Shown here: piece after piece, positions 1-8,787 of the stretch
Numbering within the stretch: position 1 is the first letter of the stretch
Layout of the letters: each line of letters starts with the position of its first letter
Source of the DNA: a virus
Lineage: Duplodnaviria; Heunggongvirae; Uroviricota; Caudoviricetes
Strand: one strand, 5' to 3'
Virus record (IMG/VR): IMGVR_UViG_2778261358_000013
DNA: 12,575 bases
Notes under the pieces: generated by a model
Seen by the model: only the letters and a program-made list of their open reading frames with translations
The model's database searches: none
Told to the model about the DNA's origin: nothing
Position numbers and translations under genes: made by a program

Positions 1-190
1 CAGAACGGCTATTCCATTCGAAGGTGAGCGCCATAATGCACTTGATGACGCCCGTTACCAGGCAAAATACGTTTCAGTTATCTGGCAAAAACTGATCCCG
101 AGTCAGGCTGATTCTTAATGTTCAACTGTCGCCGGTTGTGACTGGTATTCTGCAACCGGCGCTCGTCTGATGTAAGAGATAAAGAAAGCG

Positions 191-442
191 ATGAGCGAAG
201 TAATCATGATTGTCTCTCCCGGCAAATGGGTATCCGAAGAGCAGTTAATTGCGCTGAAAGGAATAAAAAAAGGTACGTTAAAAAAGGCCCGGGAAAAATC
301 GTTTATGGAAGGAAGGGAATATAAGCATGTCGCTCATGACGGTATGCCATGGGATAACAGTCCATGCTTTTACAACCTGGAAGAAATTGATCGCTGGATT
401 GAGCGCCAGGCATCTGCAAGACCAAGACGTCATCTTGCTTGA
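191..442 (+). CDS. Putative excisionase / small DNA-binding protein (Xis-like)
   Basis: 83-aa ORF immediately upstream of and co-oriented with the integrase (stop 440-442, int ATG at 462 or 477). Small basic protein typical of prophage Xis-like genes. No strong SD before ATG 191; function is by position only. Confidence 0.5.
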   Translation: MSEVIMIVSPGKWVSEEQLIALKGIKKGTLKKAREKSFMEGREYKHVAHDGMPWDNSPCFYNLEEIDRWIERQASARPRRHLA

Positions 443-461
443 CTAAAAGCAACACGAACCA

Positions 462-1757
462 ATGAGAGAAGCTGAAATGAAATATCCGACAGGCGTGGAA
501 AACCATGGAGGGAAATTACGTATCTGGTTTGTTTATAAAGGTGTAAGAGTCCGGGAAAATCTTGGGGTTCCTGACACAGCAAAAAACAGGCGCATTGCAG
601 GTGAGCTACGCGCCTCTGTTTGTTACGCAATAAAAACTGGCGCTTTCGACTATGCAAAACAGTTTCCCGCCTCACACAATCTGGAAAAATTTGGTGAGGC
701 CCGACAAGATTTAACCATAAAAGAACTGGCTGAAAAATTTCTGGCACTGAAAGAAACTGAAGTCGCAAAAACGTCACTCAACACGTACCGTGCCGTCATC
801 AAAAATATTCTGAGCATAATCGGTGAAAAAAATCTTGCATCATCGATTAATAAAGAAAAATTGCTGGCGGTACGTAAAGAGTTACTGACTGGATACCAGA
901 TCCCCAAAAGTAACTATATTGTTACACAACCCGGGAGATCGGCTGTTACCGTAAATAATTACATGACAAATCTTTACGCCGTGTTCCAGTTTGGTGTTGA
1001 TAACGGTTATCTGGCAGACAATCCATTTAAGGGGATCTCACCATTAAAGGAGTCGAGAACCATCCCGGATCCACTTTCGCGGGAGGAGTTTATCCGCCTT
1101 ATTGACGCGTGCAGAAATCAGCAAGCCAAAAATTTATGGTGTGTTTCCGTTTATACTGGGATTCGCCCTGGTGAACTCTGTGCGCTTGGATGGGAAGATA
1201 TAGATCTGAAAAATGGAACAATGATAATCAGAAGAAATCTGGCAAAAGACCGTTTTACAGTACCAAAAACACAGGCGGGAACCAATCGTGTGATTCACCT
1301 TATTAAGCCCGCAATCGACGCTCTCCGGAGTCAGATGGCACTAACGAGACTGAGCAAAGAGCATATCATCGATGTTCACCTCAGAGAATTCGGCAGAACA
1401 GAGAAACAAAAATGTACCTTTGTTTTTCAACCTGAAGTGTCAGCGAAAGTAAAAAATTATGGTGACCATTTTACCGTTGACTCAATAAGGCAGATGTGGG
1501 ACGCAGCGGTAAAGCGTGCCGGAATCCGCCATCGCAAATCGTATCAGTCGAGACACACTTATGCCTGCTGGTCGTTAACAGCAGGAGCTAACCCGGCATT
1601 CATTGCAAACCAGATGGGCCATGCAGATGCGCAAATGGTGTTTCAGGTGTACGGGAAATGGATGTCAGAAAATAATAATGCGCAGGTAACGCTGTTAAAT
1701 ACACAGTTAAGCGAGTTTGCCCCAACCATGCCCCATAACGAAGCGATGAAAAGTTAA
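462..1757 (+). CDS. Phage tyrosine integrase (site-specific recombinase)
   Basis: 431-aa ORF. C-terminal catalytic region has the tyrosine-recombinase signature (..SRHTYACWSL..GAN..IANQMGHADAQMVFQVYGKW.. giving the R, H-x-x-R and Y residues). An alternative start at ATG 477 (MKYPTG...) is possible. Confidence 0.85.
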   Translation: MREAEMKYPTGVENHGGKLRIWFVYKGVRVRENLGVPDTAKNRRIAGELRASVCYAIKTGAFDYAKQFPASHNLEKFGEARQDLTIKELAEKFLALKETEVAKTSLNTYRAVIKNILSIIGEKNLASSINKEKLLAVRKELLTGYQIPKSNYIVTQPGRSAVTVNNYMTNLYAVFQFGVDNGYLADNPFKGISPLKESRTIPDPLSREEFIRLIDACRNQQAKNLWCVSVYTGIRPGELCALGWEDIDLKNGTMIIRRNLAKDRFTVPKTQAGTNRVIHLIKPAIDALRSQMALTRLSKEHIIDVHLREFGRTEKQKCTFVFQPEVSAKVKNYGDHFTVDSIRQMWDAAVKRAGIRHRKSYQSRHTYACWSLTAGANPAFIANQMGHADAQMVFQVYGKWMSENNNAQVTLLNTQLSEFAPTMPHNEAMKS

Positions 1758-1944
1758 TTTTTTATTTATCAATTAGTTAGATTGAATGACTCTTGAAATC
1801 CATAAATTCAAGCGCAGTGCCCAGCCATCCCGATACTGCTGCTTTCACCAAATCCTTAGTGCTTCTTTCATGTTTTTCTATTGTCATAATGGTTATCTCT
1901 AAAAAAGAGGTAAGATGCGTACTACTTACTCGCCGTTATTGGTA

Positions 1945-2964
1945 TTATTCAGAAAAAGTGAGCAAGACTTTGCAGCAATGTTTTTGATCCTGTTCAAATA
2001 AACTAATGGCATCAGCAACATGCTGGAAATCAAACGTATGGGTAATTAATTTTTCTGGTTTAATTAACCCTTTACTTAACCAGTCGATAACAACCGGAAA
2101 TTTATTTGCATTTAAGCGTGAAGAGAAAATAGAGAGTTCTTTTCCGGTAATTCCTTGCTGAATCACTTCAGACGGTTCACTGGAGAAGCCCATCAATACA
2201 ATACGTGCCGCTGGAGAAGCCAGCGTTACGGCCTCTTTCAGGATAGAAGGATGACAAGCCGCATCGATAATTAATGTCGGCTTGATGCCTTTTTCAGCGA
2301 AAATCTCGCCAAGCGGTGTCTGGCTGTTATTAATCGCCCAGTCTGCCCCGCTCTCTTTCGCTTTTTCCAGTCGTTCATCAATGCGATCGGCAACAATCAC
2401 ATTTTTAACGTTATAGACGCCTTTTAATACCTGAACGATCGTCAGGCCGATTGGACCGGCACCATAAACCAGAACGGTATCATTTTCAGTCGGTTGACCA
2501 TGACCGGTAACGTTAGCCGCAATGGTAAAAGGTTCGATCATCACCGCATATTGATCGGCCACTGCTTCAGGAATTTTCCACGCATTTTTTGCCGGAACCA
2601 CGGCATATTCACTGAAACCACCGTCAGCGTGCACACCTAATACAGCAAGTGTCGTACAAACGTTCGGCTTACCTATAGAGCACGGATAGCAATGCCCACA
2701 GCTGACCACCGGATCGACAGCAACGCGTTCACCGACTCTGGCGCTTTCCACACCTTCACCCACCGCATCAATGACGCCAAAGAATTCATGACCAATGACG
2801 CGCGGATATTTCGCAAAAGGATTATGCCCACGGTAAATATGGCTATCTGAACCACAAATTCCGGCAAGTTTCACTTTTACTCGTACTTCACCCGCTGACG
2901 GGGTGGGTATTTCACGTTCGATAATCGACAGTTGATTCGGTTTTTCAATTAAAATGCTTTTCAT
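1945..2964 (-). CDS. rspB: Zn-dependent alcohol/sugar dehydrogenase, starvation-sensing protein RspB
   Basis: Translation matches my memory of E. coli RspB (MKSILIEKPNQLSIIEREIPTPSAGEVRVKVKLAGICGSDSHIYRG...; zinc motifs GHEFFG and CGHCYPC). Start set at ATG 2962-2964 with SD AGGAG 7 nt upstream, not the longer track ORF start at 2988. Lies 11 nt downstream of the rspA stop, operon-like. Confidence 0.85.
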   Translation of the reverse strand: MKSILIEKPNQLSIIEREIPTPSAGEVRVKVKLAGICGSDSHIYRGHNPFAKYPRVIGHEFFGVIDAVGEGVESARVGERVAVDPVVSCGHCYPCSIGKPNVCTTLAVLGVHADGGFSEYAVVPAKNAWKIPEAVADQYAVMIEPFTIAANVTGHGQPTENDTVLVYGAGPIGLTIVQVLKGVYNVKNVIVADRIDERLEKAKESGADWAINNSQTPLGEIFAEKGIKPTLIIDAACHPSILKEAVTLASPAARIVLMGFSSEPSEVIQQGITGKELSIFSSRLNANKFPVVIDWLSKGLIKPEKLITHTFDFQHVADAISLFEQDQKHCCKVLLTFSE

Positions 2965-2975
2965 TACCTTACTCC

Positions 2976-4189
2976 TTACCAGTTCCACAGCGTGCCATCT
3001 TCCAGACGTGCGACTGGCAGATAAGCAGGTTCATAGGGATATTTCGCCGCCAGCTTTTCATCGAATTCGATGCCAAGACCCGGTTTGTCTCCCGGATGCA
3101 TATAGCCGTTATCGAAAGTCCAGTTGTGCGGGAAGACTTCGAGCATTTGTTCGGAATAACCCATGTACTCCTGGACACCGAAATTGGGGACCCACAGATC
3201 AAAGTGCAGCGCCGCAGCCATGCAGACTGGTGACAAATCGGAAGGACCGTGTGAGCCAGTACGTACCTGATACAGCGAAGCAAAATCGGCAATCCGGCGC
3301 ATACCGGTAATTCCGCCTGCATGGGTCAGCGTGGTGCGGATATAATCGATGAGTTGCTCTTCAATCAGTTGTTTGCAGTCCCAGATGCTGTTGAAGACTT
3401 CACCCACTGCGATGGGTGTGACGGTATGTTGGCGAATGAGACGGAAGCATTCCTGGTTTTCCGCAGGCGTCGGGTCTTCCATCCAGAACATGCGATAATC
3501 TTCAATGCTTTTACCAAAGCGCGCCGCTTCAATAGGCGTTAAGCGATGGTACATGTCATGCAGCAAATGTTCATTAAAACCAAACTTGTTACGTACCGCG
3601 TCAAACAATTTCGGCATGAAATCGAGGTATTTCTCCGTCGACCACAGCTGCTCTTCCGGCCACTGTCCTTTGGTTGCGGGTTCATAAGCCAGACCTTTAC
3701 CTTTCGACATGCCGTAGGTGGTTTTCATACCAGGGATTCCGCACTGCACGCGGATGGCTTTGAATCCCAGCTCCTGATGACGGGCATAATCATCCAGAGC
3801 TTCATCAATACTGTGACCGGTGGTATGGCAATAAACCATCACCCTTCACGAGACGCGCCGCCGAGTAACTGGTAAAGCGGCATGTTGGTAGCTTTGGCTT
3901 TAATATCCCACAGCGCCATATCAACCGCTGAAATGGCCGACATCGTAACCGGACCGCGACGCCAGTAAGCACCTTTATAGAAAAACTGCCAGATATCTTC
4001 GATACGGTGCGCATCGCGACCAATAAGCTGCGGACAAAGGTGATCCTGCAAATAAGAGGCCACGGAAAGCTCACGTCCATTGAGGGTGGCATCCCCAAGG
4101 CCCGTAATACCGTCCTCAGTGGTGATTTTTAATGTGACGAAATTACGCCCCGGACAGGTAACAAAAACTTCAGCCTTTACGATCTTCAT
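2976..4189 (-). pseudogene. rspA: rspA (enolase-superfamily mannonate-dehydratase-like starvation-sensing protein) interrupted by a 1-bp frameshift
   Basis: Two adjacent track ORFs (3839..4222 and 2976..3842) together read as RspA ([42 protein letters not shown]... then ...[27 protein letters not shown]...). The frame breaks at ..LLGGASREG|, where the plus strand has a ccc run at 3847-3849 and an intact gene would need one more C. Real start ATG 4187-4189 with SD AAGGA. Confidence 0.8.
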
Positions 4190-4394
4190 GTTCGATTCCT
4201 TGCATCGCTTGTCGTGATGCATGAAATCTACGCAACTGAGCTACTACCATACAAGTATAAAGATCGAAAAAAGCCGGAGTGATCACAAAAAAAGGCGTAT
4301 ATTTGCGCTGTGAATGGTTGACAAAAGATGAAATAGAATACCTTTTGTCAGCTGACACTTCCTCTTATCTTATTGATAAAATGGATTTATGTTC

Positions 4395-4721
4395 CTACGT
4401 GCGCCCCCAGCCCGCAACAATGATCAACATGCCGCAAAGCGCAATCAACGCACCCGTCCAGTCATAAAGAGTCAGTTTCACGCCATCCACAACGCGCAGC
4501 CACATCAACGCCGTGCAGACATAAACGCCACCATAAGCCGCGTAAACACGCCCACTCGCCGCTGGATGCAACGTTAACAACCAGACAAACAGCGCCAGTG
4601 AAATCCCCGCCGGAAGCAACAGCCAGATACTGGCGTTTCGTTTTAACCACAACCAGGGCAGAAAGCATCCAATAATTTCACACAGCGCAGTAGCAAAAAA
4701 TAGTAACGTTGTTTTAATCAT
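4395..4721 (-). CDS. ynfA: UPF0060-family inner membrane protein YnfA
   Basis: 108-aa hydrophobic ORF ([26 protein letters not shown]...) matching my memory of E. coli YnfA, in the conserved position between rspA and ynfB. Confidence 0.85.
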
Positions 4722-4855
4722 CTTTGTCTCTTATTGACATCATGTATAGTTATAGGGCGACATAATATCATCAATATAAACACCCTCCTGGTACGTTTTG
4801 CGTCCGCAGTGGATGGTGTAGAATCACCTTTAATCATTCATACAGGGAATGAATT

Positions 4856-5197
4856 ATGAAAATCACTCTCAGCAAACGAATCGGCCTGCTCGCTATTCTG
4901 CTGCCTTGCGCACTGGCATTGAGCACAACTGTTCATGCCGAAACTAACAAACTGGTGATTGAGTCTGGCGACAGTGCACAAAGCCGCCAGCACGCCGCTA
5001 TGGAAAAAGAGCAATGGAATGACACGCGCAATCTGCGCCAGAAAGTGAATAAACGCACTGAAAAAGAGTGGGATAAAGCCGACGCCGCTTTTGATAACCG
5101 CGATAAATGTGAGCAAAGCGCCAACATCAATGCCTACTGGGAGCCCAATACTTTGCGCTGCCTGGACCGTCGAACTGGCCGCGTTATTACCCCCTAA
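4856..5197 (+). CDS. ynfB: Secreted/periplasmic small protein YnfB (signal peptide, function unknown)
   Basis: 113-aa ORF with N-terminal signal peptide ([28 protein letters not shown]|ETN). Divergent from ynfA and directly upstream of speG, as in E. coli. Confidence 0.8.
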
Positions 5198-5231
5198 CCT
5201 GTTATTGATTTAAGGAATGTAAGGACACGTT

Positions 5232-5792
5232 ATGCCAAGCGCCCACAGTGTTAAGCTACGCCCGCTGGAGCGTGAAGATTTACGCTATGTACATCAACTC
5301 GACAACAACGCCAGTGTGATGCGTTACTGGTTTGAGGAACCCTACGAAGCCTTTGTTGAACTCTCTGATCTGTATGATAAGCATATTCACGATCAGAGCG
5401 AACGGCGCTTTGTGGTGGAATGTGACGGCGAAAAAGCCGGTCTGGTGGAGCTGGTGGAAATTAACCATGTTCATCGCCGCGCAGAATTTCAGATAATTAT
5501 CTCCCCGGAGTATCAGGGGAAAGGTCTGGCAACCCGTGCCGCCAAATTAGCAATGGACTATGGCTTTACCGTTCTCAATCTCTATAAGCTGTATCTGATC
5601 GTTGATAAAGAGAATGAAAAAGCGATTCACATTTACCGCAAGCTTGGCTTTTCGGTTGAAGGTGAATTGATGCACGAGTTCTTTATTAATGGTCAATATC
5701 GTAATGCCATTCGCATGTGTATATTCCAGCATCAGTATCTGGCAGAGCACAAAACACCGGGTCAGACTCTCCTGAAGCCGACCGCACAATAG
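5232..5792 (+). CDS. speG: Spermidine N1-acetyltransferase (GNAT family)
   Basis: 186-aa [44 protein letters not shown]... recognised as SpeG. GNAT acetyl-CoA motif region (..[18 protein letters not shown]..) present. Confidence 0.9.
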
Positions 5793-5794
5793 CA

Positions 5795-6505
5795 TTAATA
5801 ATAATCGATCGTATTTTTGATGGTGTAAACCCGTTCGACGGCGGGTTTTACTCCTTCATCAACAATGATTAGCTGACAGTCCACCGGATTAGCGTGACTG
5901 TCATATTCACAGCTCTGTTTTACATTACCAACCCGTTGATTATTCAGTAAAGTAACCGCTGTGTAATCTAATTTTTTGATCGGATCCGTTGATGGCGTGG
6001 CGCTGACAGATAATGTTTTGTCGTTACTTTTCGTGGTTTTACCCAGCGGATAACCCTGATCATCATAGCGATATTCCATCTGCATTTGTTTGCTGCTGGC
6101 TTTAATCACGAAGCCATTATCATCGGTTTCCCAACTCACCCCGGCAGAAGGTAATTCTGCTAGCTGGCATTTTCCCTGTAAACGTACTCTCTTCTCCAGC
6201 GTCTCGGCATCACGGTAATAATTGGCGTCCAGTACCAGAGCGACCACGGTATTATTTTCCAGATCCAGTAATTCGAGTGAATCAAAACAGCCTTCTTCCG
6301 ACAAAGTCCCAGAAACACGTTTCGTCACTTCACCTTGCTCATCCATTAATGTCTGAGTGAAATCTTTTACCGGACCACGCAGCGGATCAAAATCGAATTC
6401 ATTAGAGAAACTGGCCATCTCAGGGGTAAATGAAAGTGTTACCTCTGTGCGGTCACATCCTGTGAGGAATATCGCGAGTAAGCATGGTAGTAATTTGTAT
6501 TTCAC
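5795..6505 (-). CDS. ynfC: Lipoprotein YnfC (UPF0257 family)
   Basis: Convergent with speG (stops 2 nt apart). Lipobox LLAIFLTGC near the N-terminus. Start placed at GTG 6503-6505 (VKYKLLPCLL..) to give a 236-aa lipoprotein precursor; the track ORF starts 12 codons upstream at ATG 6541. Confidence 0.8.
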   Translation of the reverse strand: MKYKLLPCLLAIFLTGCDRTEVTLSFTPEMASFSNEFDFDPLRGPVKDFTQTLMDEQGEVTKRVSGTLSEEGCFDSLELLDLENNTVVALVLDANYYRDAETLEKRVRLQGKCQLAELPSAGVSWETDDNGFVIKASSKQMQMEYRYDDQGYPLGKTTKSNDKTLSVSATPSTDPIKKLDYTAVTLLNNQRVGNVKQSCEYDSHANPVDCQLIIVDEGVKPAVERVYTIKNTIDYY

Positions 6506-6609
6506 AACAGTCACCAGAGAGTAGAGATGATTCTCAATCATAGTAGCAAATACAGTACTTTACACGTTAAATGCTATGCTTAAAGAAGTTATCTTCGCGT
6601 AAGGAGCTT

Positions 6610-6918
6610 ATGATGAAACTCTCAACCTGCTGTGCCGCGCTTCTGCTCGCCCTCGCCTCACCCGTGGTACTCGCCGCGCCGGGATCCTGTGAGCGCATAC
6701 AGAGCGATATATCACAGCGCATTATCAATAATGGCGTACCCGAAAGCAGCTTCACGTTAAGTATTGTACCCAATGACCAGGTTGATCAGCCTGATTCCCA
6801 GGTCGTCGGCCATTGCGCTAATGATACGCATAAAATTCTCTATACCCGCACCACCAGCGGTAACGTCTCTGCTCCCGCGCAGTCTACCCAGGATGGCGCG
6901 CCTGCCGAACCGCAGTAA
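6610..6918 (+). CDS. ynfD: Small secreted protein YnfD (DUF1161-like)
   Basis: Start ATG 6610 (or 6613) preceded by SD AAGGAG at 6601-6606. Signal peptide MMKLSTCCAALLLALASPVVLA|AP. Assigned by sequence plus conserved position upstream of ynfE. Confidence 0.75.
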   Translation: MMKLSTCCAALLLALASPVVLAAPGSCERIQSDISQRIINNGVPESSFTLSIVPNDQVDQPDSQVVGHCANDTHKILYTRTTSGNVSAPAQSTQDGAPAEPQ

Positions 6919-6934
6919 TACATTATCGACTGAA

Positions 6935-6962
6935 CGCCGGATACGACACATCCGGCGATTTG
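6935..6962 (+). terminator. Candidate rho-independent terminator after ynfD
   Basis: Perfect 8-bp stem cgccggat (6935-6942) / atccggcg (6950-6957) with 7-nt loop acgacac, followed by ATTTG 17 nt after the ynfD stop. Confidence 0.45.
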
Positions 6963-7003
6963 AACATACAACATAATCCCACCTTATTACTCATACCCTT
7001 CTA

Positions 7004-7017
7004 TTGATATGGATTAA
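7004..7017 (+). promoter_or_regulatory. FNR-like half-palindrome TTGAT-N4-ATTAA about 100 bp upstream of ynfE
   Basis: ttgatatggattaa matches the FNR/CRP-family consensus TTGAT-N4-ATCAA with one mismatch. The ynfEFGH operon is anaerobically expressed in E. coli (established); the site assignment is inference. Confidence 0.3.
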
Positions 7018-7116
7018 TAATTCTTAACCCAAAATGGGTAGACTCCCTCTATTGTTAGCGCGCTAAATATTCAATATATAAACATTTATATAACGATAAA
7101 GAACAGGGAGTGAGTT

Positions 7117-8526
7117 ATGTCCAAAAATGACCGAATGGTGGGCATCAGCCGCAGAACACTCGTTAAATCAACCGCGATAGGTTCTCTGGCGCTGGCTGCA
7201 GGCGGTTTTTCTTTACCGTTCACCCTGCGCAGTGCAGCGGCAACGGTACAACAGGCCAGCGAAAAAGTGATCTGGGGTGCCTGTTCCGTCAACTGTGGTA
7301 GCCGCTGTGCACTTCGTCTACATGTTAAAGATAATGAAGTGACCTGGGTGGAAACTGACAATACCGGCAGCGATGAGTACGGCAACCATCAGGTACGCGC
7401 CTGTTTGCGCGGTCGCTCCATCCGCCGGCGTATTAATCATCCCGATCGCTTGAATTACCCAATGAAACGCGTGGGTACACGCGGTGAAGGCAAATTCGAA
7501 CGGATTAGCTGGGATGAAGCCCTGGATACTATCGCCAGTAGCCTGAAAAAAACCGTCGAACAATATGGCAATGAGGCTGTATATATTCAGTACTCTTCGG
7601 GGATTGTTGGCGGCAATATGACCCGCTCTTCGCCATCAGCCTCGGCGGTCAAACGCCTGATGAACTGCTACGGCGGTTCACTCAATCAGTATGGCTCCTA
7701 CAGCACCGCGCAAATTTCCTGTGCCATGCCCTACACCTACGGCAGTAATGATGGCAACAGCACCACGGATATTGAAAACAGCAAGCTGGTCGTGATGTTT
7801 GGTAACAACCCGGCAGAAACCCGCATGAGCGGCGGTGGCATCACTTATCTTCTTGAAAAAGCGCGCGAGAAATCGAACGCCAAAATGATTGTTATCGATC
7901 CGCGATATACCGATACGGCTGCTGGTCGTGAAGATGAATGGCTCCCTATTCGCCCGGGCACCGATGCCGCGCTGGTTGCGGGTATTGCCTGGGTATTGAT
8001 TAACGAAAATCTCGTTGATCAACCTTTTCTCGATAAATACTGCGTCGGCTATGACGAAAAAACCTTACCCGCAGATGCACCCAAAAATGGTCACTATAAA
8101 GCCTATATTCTTGGTGAAGGTGATGATAACACAGCGAAAACGCCGCAGTGGGCTTCGCAAATTACCGGTATCCCGGTAGACCGTATCATCAAACTGGCGC
8201 GTGAAATTGGCACAGCAAAACCCGCTTATATCTGCCAGGGCTGGGGGCCGCAACGCCAGGCAAACGGCGAACTGACTGCACGCGCTATTGCTATGTTACC
8301 TATTTTGACGGGCAATGTCGGCATCAGCGGCGGAAATAGTGGCGCGCGTGAATCGACCTATACCATTACCATAGAACGCCTGCCGGTGCTGGATAATCCG
8401 GTCAAAACGTCAATCTCCTGCTTCAGCTGGACAGATGCTATCGATCATGGTCCGCAAATGACGGCAATCCGCGACGGCGTCCGCGGCAAAGATAAACTGG
8501 ATGTGCCCATTAAGTTCATCTGGAAC
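7117..8526 (+). pseudogene. ynfE: 5-prime portion (~470 codons) of ynfE, molybdopterin oxidoreductase / DMSO-reductase-family catalytic subunit, truncated by foreign DNA
   Basis: Tat signal (MSKNDRMVGISRRTLVKSTAIGSLALAAGG...AAA) and N-terminal Cys cluster (CSVNCGSRCALRLH) typical of DmsA/YnfE-type enzymes. The homologous reading ends at ...DVPIKFIWN (codon ending 8526). The track ORF then runs 22 unrelated codons (FKDLKRLLVRVTRDLSRPEVLH) to a stop at 8593-8595. Full-length proteins of this family are about 800 aa. Confidence 0.8.
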
Positions 8527-8787
8527 TTCAAGGACTTGAAGCGGTTACTCGTTAGAGTCACGAGAGACCTTAGTAGGCCTGAGGTCCTGCATTGAGTCAA
8601 GGACTTTGTGTCATTCTTTGTGCCAGACTTGTGTCATTAGACGGGATTTCTAGACGGCTGGTCAGGACCCCGGTGGCCTCGGTCTGGACTTGAGGCGGGG
8701 CTATGGGGGAAGTCTGCTGGCTTAATGTATTAGATGGTCATTCACATTTTTCTGTCAGAAACCATCGGTCCCACTGTGAGTCCAAAC
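8527..8787 (-). repeat. Non-coding terminal-repeat-like region of the foreign segment, with T7-group-like end motifs on the minus strand
   Basis: No ORF longer than 15 codons on the minus strand. Minus strand carries CTCACAGTG-G-GACC (8767-8780) and TTCCCCCATAG (8701-8711), resembling the first ~35 nt of the T7 terminal repeat (TCTCACAGTGTACGGACCTAAAGTTCCCCCATAGGGGG, from memory). Short direct repeats tcaaggactt (8528, 8596) and gactt(t)gtgtcatt (8600, 8618). Confidence 0.4.

Follow-up and report, generated by a model that had tools for sequence, protein, structure and literature searches.

RspA of Escherichia coli is a D-mannonate dehydratase of the ManD family, within the enolase superfamily, and its gene lies in the order rspB-rspA-ynfA-ynfB-speG. 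It is not the main mannonate dehydratase of E. coli, which is UxuA. A K-12 rspAB knockout is viable and has only slight phenotypes, and the role of the operon has been called unresolved (PMC13034041). On both grounds, loss of rspA is expected to be cheap. Fragments of rspA are common among Shigella flexneri records. Two other kinds of described system invite comparison with the locus reported here. One is the slippage pseudogene of E. coli and Shigella, in which a dispensable gene loses 1 bp from a short G:C run and runs into an immediate stop codon. The other is the translationally coupled gene pair, such as trpE-trpD and trpB-trpA, in which the stop codon of one gene overlaps the start codon of the next. 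We know of no two-piece enzymes in the enolase superfamily.

The rspA gene analyzed here lies in a 12,575-nucleotide stretch of DNA, called the window below. It shares with E. coli RspA/ManD the same synteny (rspB-rspA-ynfA-ynfB-speG), 99.9% DNA identity, and both Pfam domains. Unlike in that enzyme, the ORF is broken at codons 116/117, Tyr stands in place of His214 and Thr in place of Ala101, and a 404-amino-acid (aa) enzyme cannot be encoded. The loss of 1 bp from a short G:C run, the immediate stop, and the dispensability of the gene are as in other slippage pseudogenes of E. coli and Shigella; in contrast to the ordinary ones, the identical lesion recurs in several backgrounds and was preceded by an active-site missense change. 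The new stop codon overlaps an in-frame GUG and an in-frame AUG, similar to the UGAUG and GUGA overlaps of coupled genes such as trpE-trpD, but this overlap was made by a mutation inside one gene, and reinitiation at it is putative. We conclude that rspA in this strain is very probably a genuine, inherited pseudogene, produced by the loss of one base on an allele that had already been damaged by a missense change. Such decay is an ordinary kind of event, and it is mildly unusual only in its recurrence elsewhere and in the clean overlap of stop and start codons.

A one-base deletion in rspA

The window is the reverse complement of contig NJZN01000065.1 from NCBI assembly GCA_002460955.1. Its rspA gene, encoding a ManD family "starvation-sensing protein," occupies 2976..4189 on the minus strand and is 1,214 nt long, as opposed to 1,215 nt in the annotated rspA of E. 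coli E2863, to which it was aligned. A preliminary description of the window had reported a single-base frameshift in a short C/G run of this gene and had proposed a comparison with rspA from closely related genomes. The comparison bears the frameshift out. From 1900 to 4750, the window aligns with the rspB-rspA-ynfA region of E2863 over 2,851 bases with two substitutions (G to A at 3551 and C to T at 3889, plus strand) and one 1-bp gap, which falls in the C run. The plus-strand sequence around the lesion is CATCACCCTTCAC, in which CCC occupies 3842..3844 (GGG on the minus strand, nt 346 to 348 of the gene, codons 116/117), where E2863 has CCCC and intact genes have four bases. The interval of 3836 to 3852 given in the preliminary description does contain the lesion, whereas the CCC that it placed at 3847 to 3849 is five bases off, the triplet at that position being CAC. 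Over the whole window backbone from 1790 to 8527 (6,738 bp), there are four differences from E2863 in all, and the rspA deletion is the sole indel. Three of the four differences fall in rspA, which makes up 18% of the length (binomial P of ~0.02).

The deletion leaves two ORFs in different frames in place of a single uninterrupted ORF of ~404 aa. The rspA frame ends after ...LLGGASREG, and the other frame resumes with MVYCHTTG and ends with ...WNW and a stop codon (translations of 3839 to 4222 and 2976 to 3842, minus strand). In an intact protein, this point reads ...SREGVMVYCH..., and the RspA sequence assumed in the preliminary description was thus correct across the break. The N-terminal ORF (3839..4189, minus strand) encodes 116 aa followed by a TGA stop codon at 3841-3839 and contains the capping domain (Pfam MR_MLE_N, residues 12 to 110; E value of 1.6e-36). 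The C-terminal ORF (2976..3839, minus strand) encodes 287 aa from the ATG at 3839-3837, or 288 aa from the GTG at 3842-3840, and contains the barrel (Pfam MR_MLE_C, residues 118 to 404; E value of 2.6e-45). By sequence, the gene belongs to ManD: with the frameshift and 2 aa as its sole differences from the window gene, the intact orthologue reaches 744 bits with NF043051, the ManD equivalog model of NCBIfam (cutoff of 550), and matches PDB entry 4IL2, the structure of the E. coli protein, with an E value of 6.6e-290.

As the Pfam N-terminal domain ends at residue 110 and the stop codon follows residue 116, the gene is cut at a domain boundary, and the deletion adds no out-of-frame residues to the N-terminal product. 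In GGGTGATGG, the TGA at 3841-3839 overlies both the GTG at 3842-3840 and the ATG at 3839-3837, which are in the barrel frame. The resulting GTGATG (3837..3842, minus strand) is, as read from the sequence, a putative termination-reinitiation site. The overlap makes reinitiation conceivable, and this could spare rspB from polarity. The downstream operon gene rspB (1945..2964, minus strand; NF007489, 694.7 bits) is intact, and its DNA is identical to that of E2863.

The A101T/H214Y haplotype

The two substitutions private to this rspA are both non-synonymous. The change at 3551 (CAC to TAC, minus strand) gives H214Y and affects a near-invariant active-site histidine, and the change at 3889 (GCC to ACC, minus strand) gives A101T. 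The C-terminal ORF retains the metal ligands Asp212, Glu238, and Glu264 as well as the Arg147/Tyr159 dyad, but two residues past the first metal ligand, Asp212, where the conserved active-site histidine is expected, it has Tyr. The histidine two residues past the first ligand in the ManD of Novosphingobium aromaticivorans, His212, is said to be the general acid, and we take it to be the counterpart of His214 of RspA. Conservation was assessed in 29 near-full-length homologues (32 to 60% identity) taken from a search with the C-terminal ORF against 1.84 billion representative proteins. His214 is kept in 25 of the 29 and is never Tyr, which is on par with the metal ligands Asp212 (26/29), Glu238 (27/29), and Glu264 (27/29). 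Arg147, which together with Tyr159 forms the general base (PMC4570537), is kept in 24 of the 29. Position 101 is Ala in 14 of the 25 homologues having a residue at that column. Judging from the conservation of His214 and its presumed catalytic role, H214Y probably abolishes dehydratase activity, and we infer that little or no activity was left in the enzyme when the frameshift arose.

Both the deletion and the substitutions are rare. Using a 66-nt probe, the deletion was absent from the 5,067 complete RefSeq E. coli genomes carrying the segment, with a best identity of 98.5%; the best matches listed for this 66-base probe span 67 bases in the complete genomes. No exact match was found for a 61-mer with H214Y in 5,064 complete E. 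coli genomes or for a 61-mer with A101T in 5,059. The rspA segment is missing from ~360 of 5,426 complete E. coli genomes, and the rspB-rspA-ynfA region is less than 80% covered in ~500 of the 5,426; the locus is therefore variably present in E. coli. Five matches are on plasmids.

Sequence records beyond the window hold the haplotype both with and without the deletion. Full-length RspA with A101T and H214Y is on record in 32 contigs, or ~55 index blocks. Exact look-ups found RspA with A101T only in 6 contigs and with H214Y only in 2, and single-mutant intermediates thus exist. All eight full-length double-mutant loci that we fetched have GGGG and an intact ynfE gene and share the backbone except for a few SNPs, while every deletion carrier in the lineage of the window has A101T together with H214Y. 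Since the full-length double mutants all keep GGGG, the frameshift arose in a lineage that already bore the missense changes. The deleted form makes up ~14% of the A101T/H214Y lineage (9 contigs beside 55 blocks), compared with 0 of the 5,067 complete genomes.

The exact 116-aa product with A101T and the exact 287-aa product are both on record, the former in nine contigs from NCBI, Logan, and ENA. Over 12,443 bases, a Logan assembly from the raw reads of SRR6396339 matches the window with 100% identity, and its ynfE is likewise interrupted at 8527. The ENA metagenome scaffold ERZ28580088 shows two SNPs and no gaps relative to window positions 59 to 8527, and its ynfE is intact. The Logan contig of SRR10417712 has the same two SNPs and a ynfE gene interrupted by a different island variant, and a contig of ENA ERZ28623441 is identical to the window over 1,620 bases, with ynfE outside the contig. 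At least three other samples, among them one more assembly from a read set and the metagenome assemblies of two studies, thereby share the deletion together with the rare rspA haplotype. Within the shared backbone (~8.4 kb), the deletion carriers differ from the window by 0 to 2 SNPs, and these four contigs have no other indels relative to it. The nine contigs represent three ynfE structures. With an intact ynfE in ERZ28580088, one island variant inside it in the window, and a second variant in SRR10417712, these are different genomes and not one data set.

A SNP at 4256 (T/C), in the rspA-ynfA intergenic/promoter region, splits the A101T/H214Y lineage, and intact and frameshifted rspA are present in both groups. 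The window and the contigs of SRR6396339 and ERZ28623441 are deletion carriers with T at this position, and those of ERZ28580088 and SRR10417712 are carriers with C plus a private 377T. Five of the fetched full-length alleles have T and three have C. At least two independent deletion samples are thus found in each sub-branch, and for the deletion to be on both alleles of this SNP, there must have been a recombination, a homoplasy, or two separate events.

We propose the following course of decay. A101T and H214Y in RspA would have come first, in a small E. coli lineage whose backbone is B1-like. This crippled allele would then have lost one G of its GGGG run (codons 116/117), with replication slippage as the simplest candidate process. 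Translation would stop at the TGA right after Gly116, parting the capping domain from the catalytic barrel. Some reinitiation at the GTG or ATG may take place and limit polarity on the intact rspB, and its product would still carry H214Y. The deletion probably persists in this lineage because selection on rspA had already been relaxed. The locus would then be a small, clean case of stepwise decay, an active-site missense change followed by a frameshift, in a gene that is dispensable and of debated physiological role.

Recurrence of the deletion and alternative explanations

The same deletion is also found outside the A101T/H214Y haplotype. A 116-aa product that keeps wild-type Ala101 is found in 80 contigs (144 index blocks), a count that includes clonal repeats and contig-end truncations with GGGG. 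Seven of the 10 such loci that we fetched (L009 to L015) carry the identical GGG deletion, in at least five backgrounds that are 20 to 107 SNPs apart (L009, L010, L011, L013, and the L012/L014/L015 lineage). There is no other indel relative to the window in L010 and L015. Further genes nearby are split in L009 and L011 to L014, which could be due to sequencing errors or, where speG is broken and IS elements are present, to a Shigella-type decay; given such broken neighbors, some of the seeming recurrence could come from errors in sequencing a difficult site. Some of these backgrounds, which are E. coli/Shigella-like, have broken speG, ynfA, ynfB, or rspB genes and adjoining IS3-family transposases. 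The other three loci are not deletions, as in each of them the contig stops right at an undeleted G run, ...GTGAAGGGG(T). They come from three independent assemblies (ERR7459357, GCA_001053295.1, and ERR14060864). Contig ends at this point may stem from a branch in the assembly graph, due to a mixed population, or from polymorphism in the base that follows.

A rough control came from exact look-ups of the N-terminal products that ±1 changes would give at other homopolymer runs in rspA. They were found in 0, 0, 5, 4, 1, 1, 1, 8, 0, and 0 contigs, for a set that covers seven other homopolymer sites and has one entry for a +1 change at the same G4 run. The controls at nt 60 and nt 94 carry no information, since their ORFs are mostly out of frame and would be skipped by gene callers; the later sites gave 0 to 8 contigs each. 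The identical deletion in at least five other backgrounds points to the G4 run as a deletion hot spot, and the run seems to be over-represented as a deletion site, even with an inflated count of 80 contigs and uninformative early-site controls.

Could the missing base be an artifact, the strain truly having GGGG and one G having been dropped by a systematic homopolymer or context error? The run comes after a GGCGGCGCG motif, a type of context that is troublesome for Illumina chemistry, but at four bases it is short for a homopolymer error, and no other window indel occurs in 6.7 kb of comparison with E2863 or in the ~8.4 kb shared with the other carriers. The absence of the deletion from all of the complete RefSeq E. 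coli genomes with the segment, its occurrence in the visibly error-prone assemblies with split neighbors (L009 and L011 to L014), and the three contigs that break exactly at the G run would all fit an error at this site. However, an independent read-based assembly is identical to the window, and in four further samples from different projects the deletion is always on the rare A101T/H214Y haplotype. A context error should not track SNPs that lie 50 and 290 bases away, nor produce ~14% of the records of one haplotype and none of 5,067 genomes. Moreover, SRR10417707 has GGGG while its sister run SRR10417712 has GGG, and their adjacent accessions suggest that they belong to one project. We consider an artifact highly improbable. 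The preliminary description had left the choice between a real pseudogene in this strain and a homopolymer sequencing error; with the deletion reproduced across assemblies, an identical Logan assembly, the same rare haplotype in other samples, and no other indels, the choice falls on the former.

Two further explanations accept the deletion and give it a function. Recoding or phase variation, that is, programmed -1 frameshifting that restores the frame or contingency switching between GGG and GGGG, is extremely unlikely. A -1 shift at GGG-U would indeed restore the frame, but the sequence there is GAAGGGU, which lacks the X XXY YYZ form of a slippery heptamer, and the RNA downstream is not unusually structured, a 111-nt stretch around the site folding no better than shuffled sequences (z = -0.67). 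As the shifted arrangement is found in 0 of 5,067 complete genomes, this is not a conserved recoding site, and programmed frameshifting was rejected. As switching would have it, nearly identical strains of the lineage include both states of the run, each of them found with either allele of SNP 4256, but a run of 3 to 4 bases is far below known contingency tracts. The other explanation is a functional split gene, in which the cap (residues 1 to 116) and the barrel (residues 117/118 to 404) are made from coupled ORFs and reassemble usefully, hence the recurrence and persistence of the deletion. The anatomy of the break suits it: the stop codon comes six residues past the Pfam N-terminal domain, at most Val117 is lost, the TGA overlaps the in-frame GTG and ATG with a weak AAGG upstream, and the C-terminal ORF is still open in all carriers. 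The 80 contigs with the N-terminal product of the deletion, against 0 to 8 for each control ±1 product, also speak for it, but that count is inflated by the contig ends at GGGG and by clonal repeats, and the early-frameshift controls are uninformative. In the window's lineage, the barrel that would have to work carries H214Y at a near-invariant active-site residue, and we regard a functional split gene as very unlikely. A stand-alone barrel homologue from another taxon (P0032) was considered as a natural split gene and set aside as uninformative, since only 8 bases separate its start from the end of its 1.9-kb contig.

An inherited pseudogene is thus our preferred reading of rspA in this strain. 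For E. coli lineages with wild-type His214, one may speculate that the G4 run is a hot spot with an unusually well-tolerated product and that some of them carry a split, possibly functional two-piece enzyme, but we think this unlikely. The recurrence is a minor curiosity and would matter only if the two-piece form were expressed and functional.

The ynfE junction and neighboring elements

According to the preliminary description, a homopolymer error in rspA would also have bearing on how far the junction at 8527 can be trusted. This doubt is not upheld. Homology to intact ynfE stops exactly at 8527, and the same junction is present in the independent Logan contig of SRR6396339 and in the complete genome VG12A2. 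In VG12A2, ynfE is annotated as 5' and 3' remnants separated by an island of ~6.3 kb, which encodes an integrase, hypothetical proteins, and a KilA-N/anti-repressor-like protein. The junction is real. The frameshift and the junction can both be trusted as biology and not assembly noise, and rspA should be annotated as a pseudogene in this contig.

The element that cuts ynfE at 8527 is a small integrative island, which extends from 8527/8528 to 12575 in the window and is also seen in the SRR10417712 contig and in L002/L028. Among near-identical strains, ynfE occurs in three states: intact (ERZ28580088), interrupted by the island of the window, and interrupted by a diverged variant (SRR10417712). 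On the other side of the locus, adjoining rspB, positions 191 to 1757 of the window encode a lambdoid prophage excisionase (83 aa) and integrase (431 aa). This prophage part is ~94% identical to the E2863 prophage at the same site, compared with 99.9% for the chromosomal backbone.
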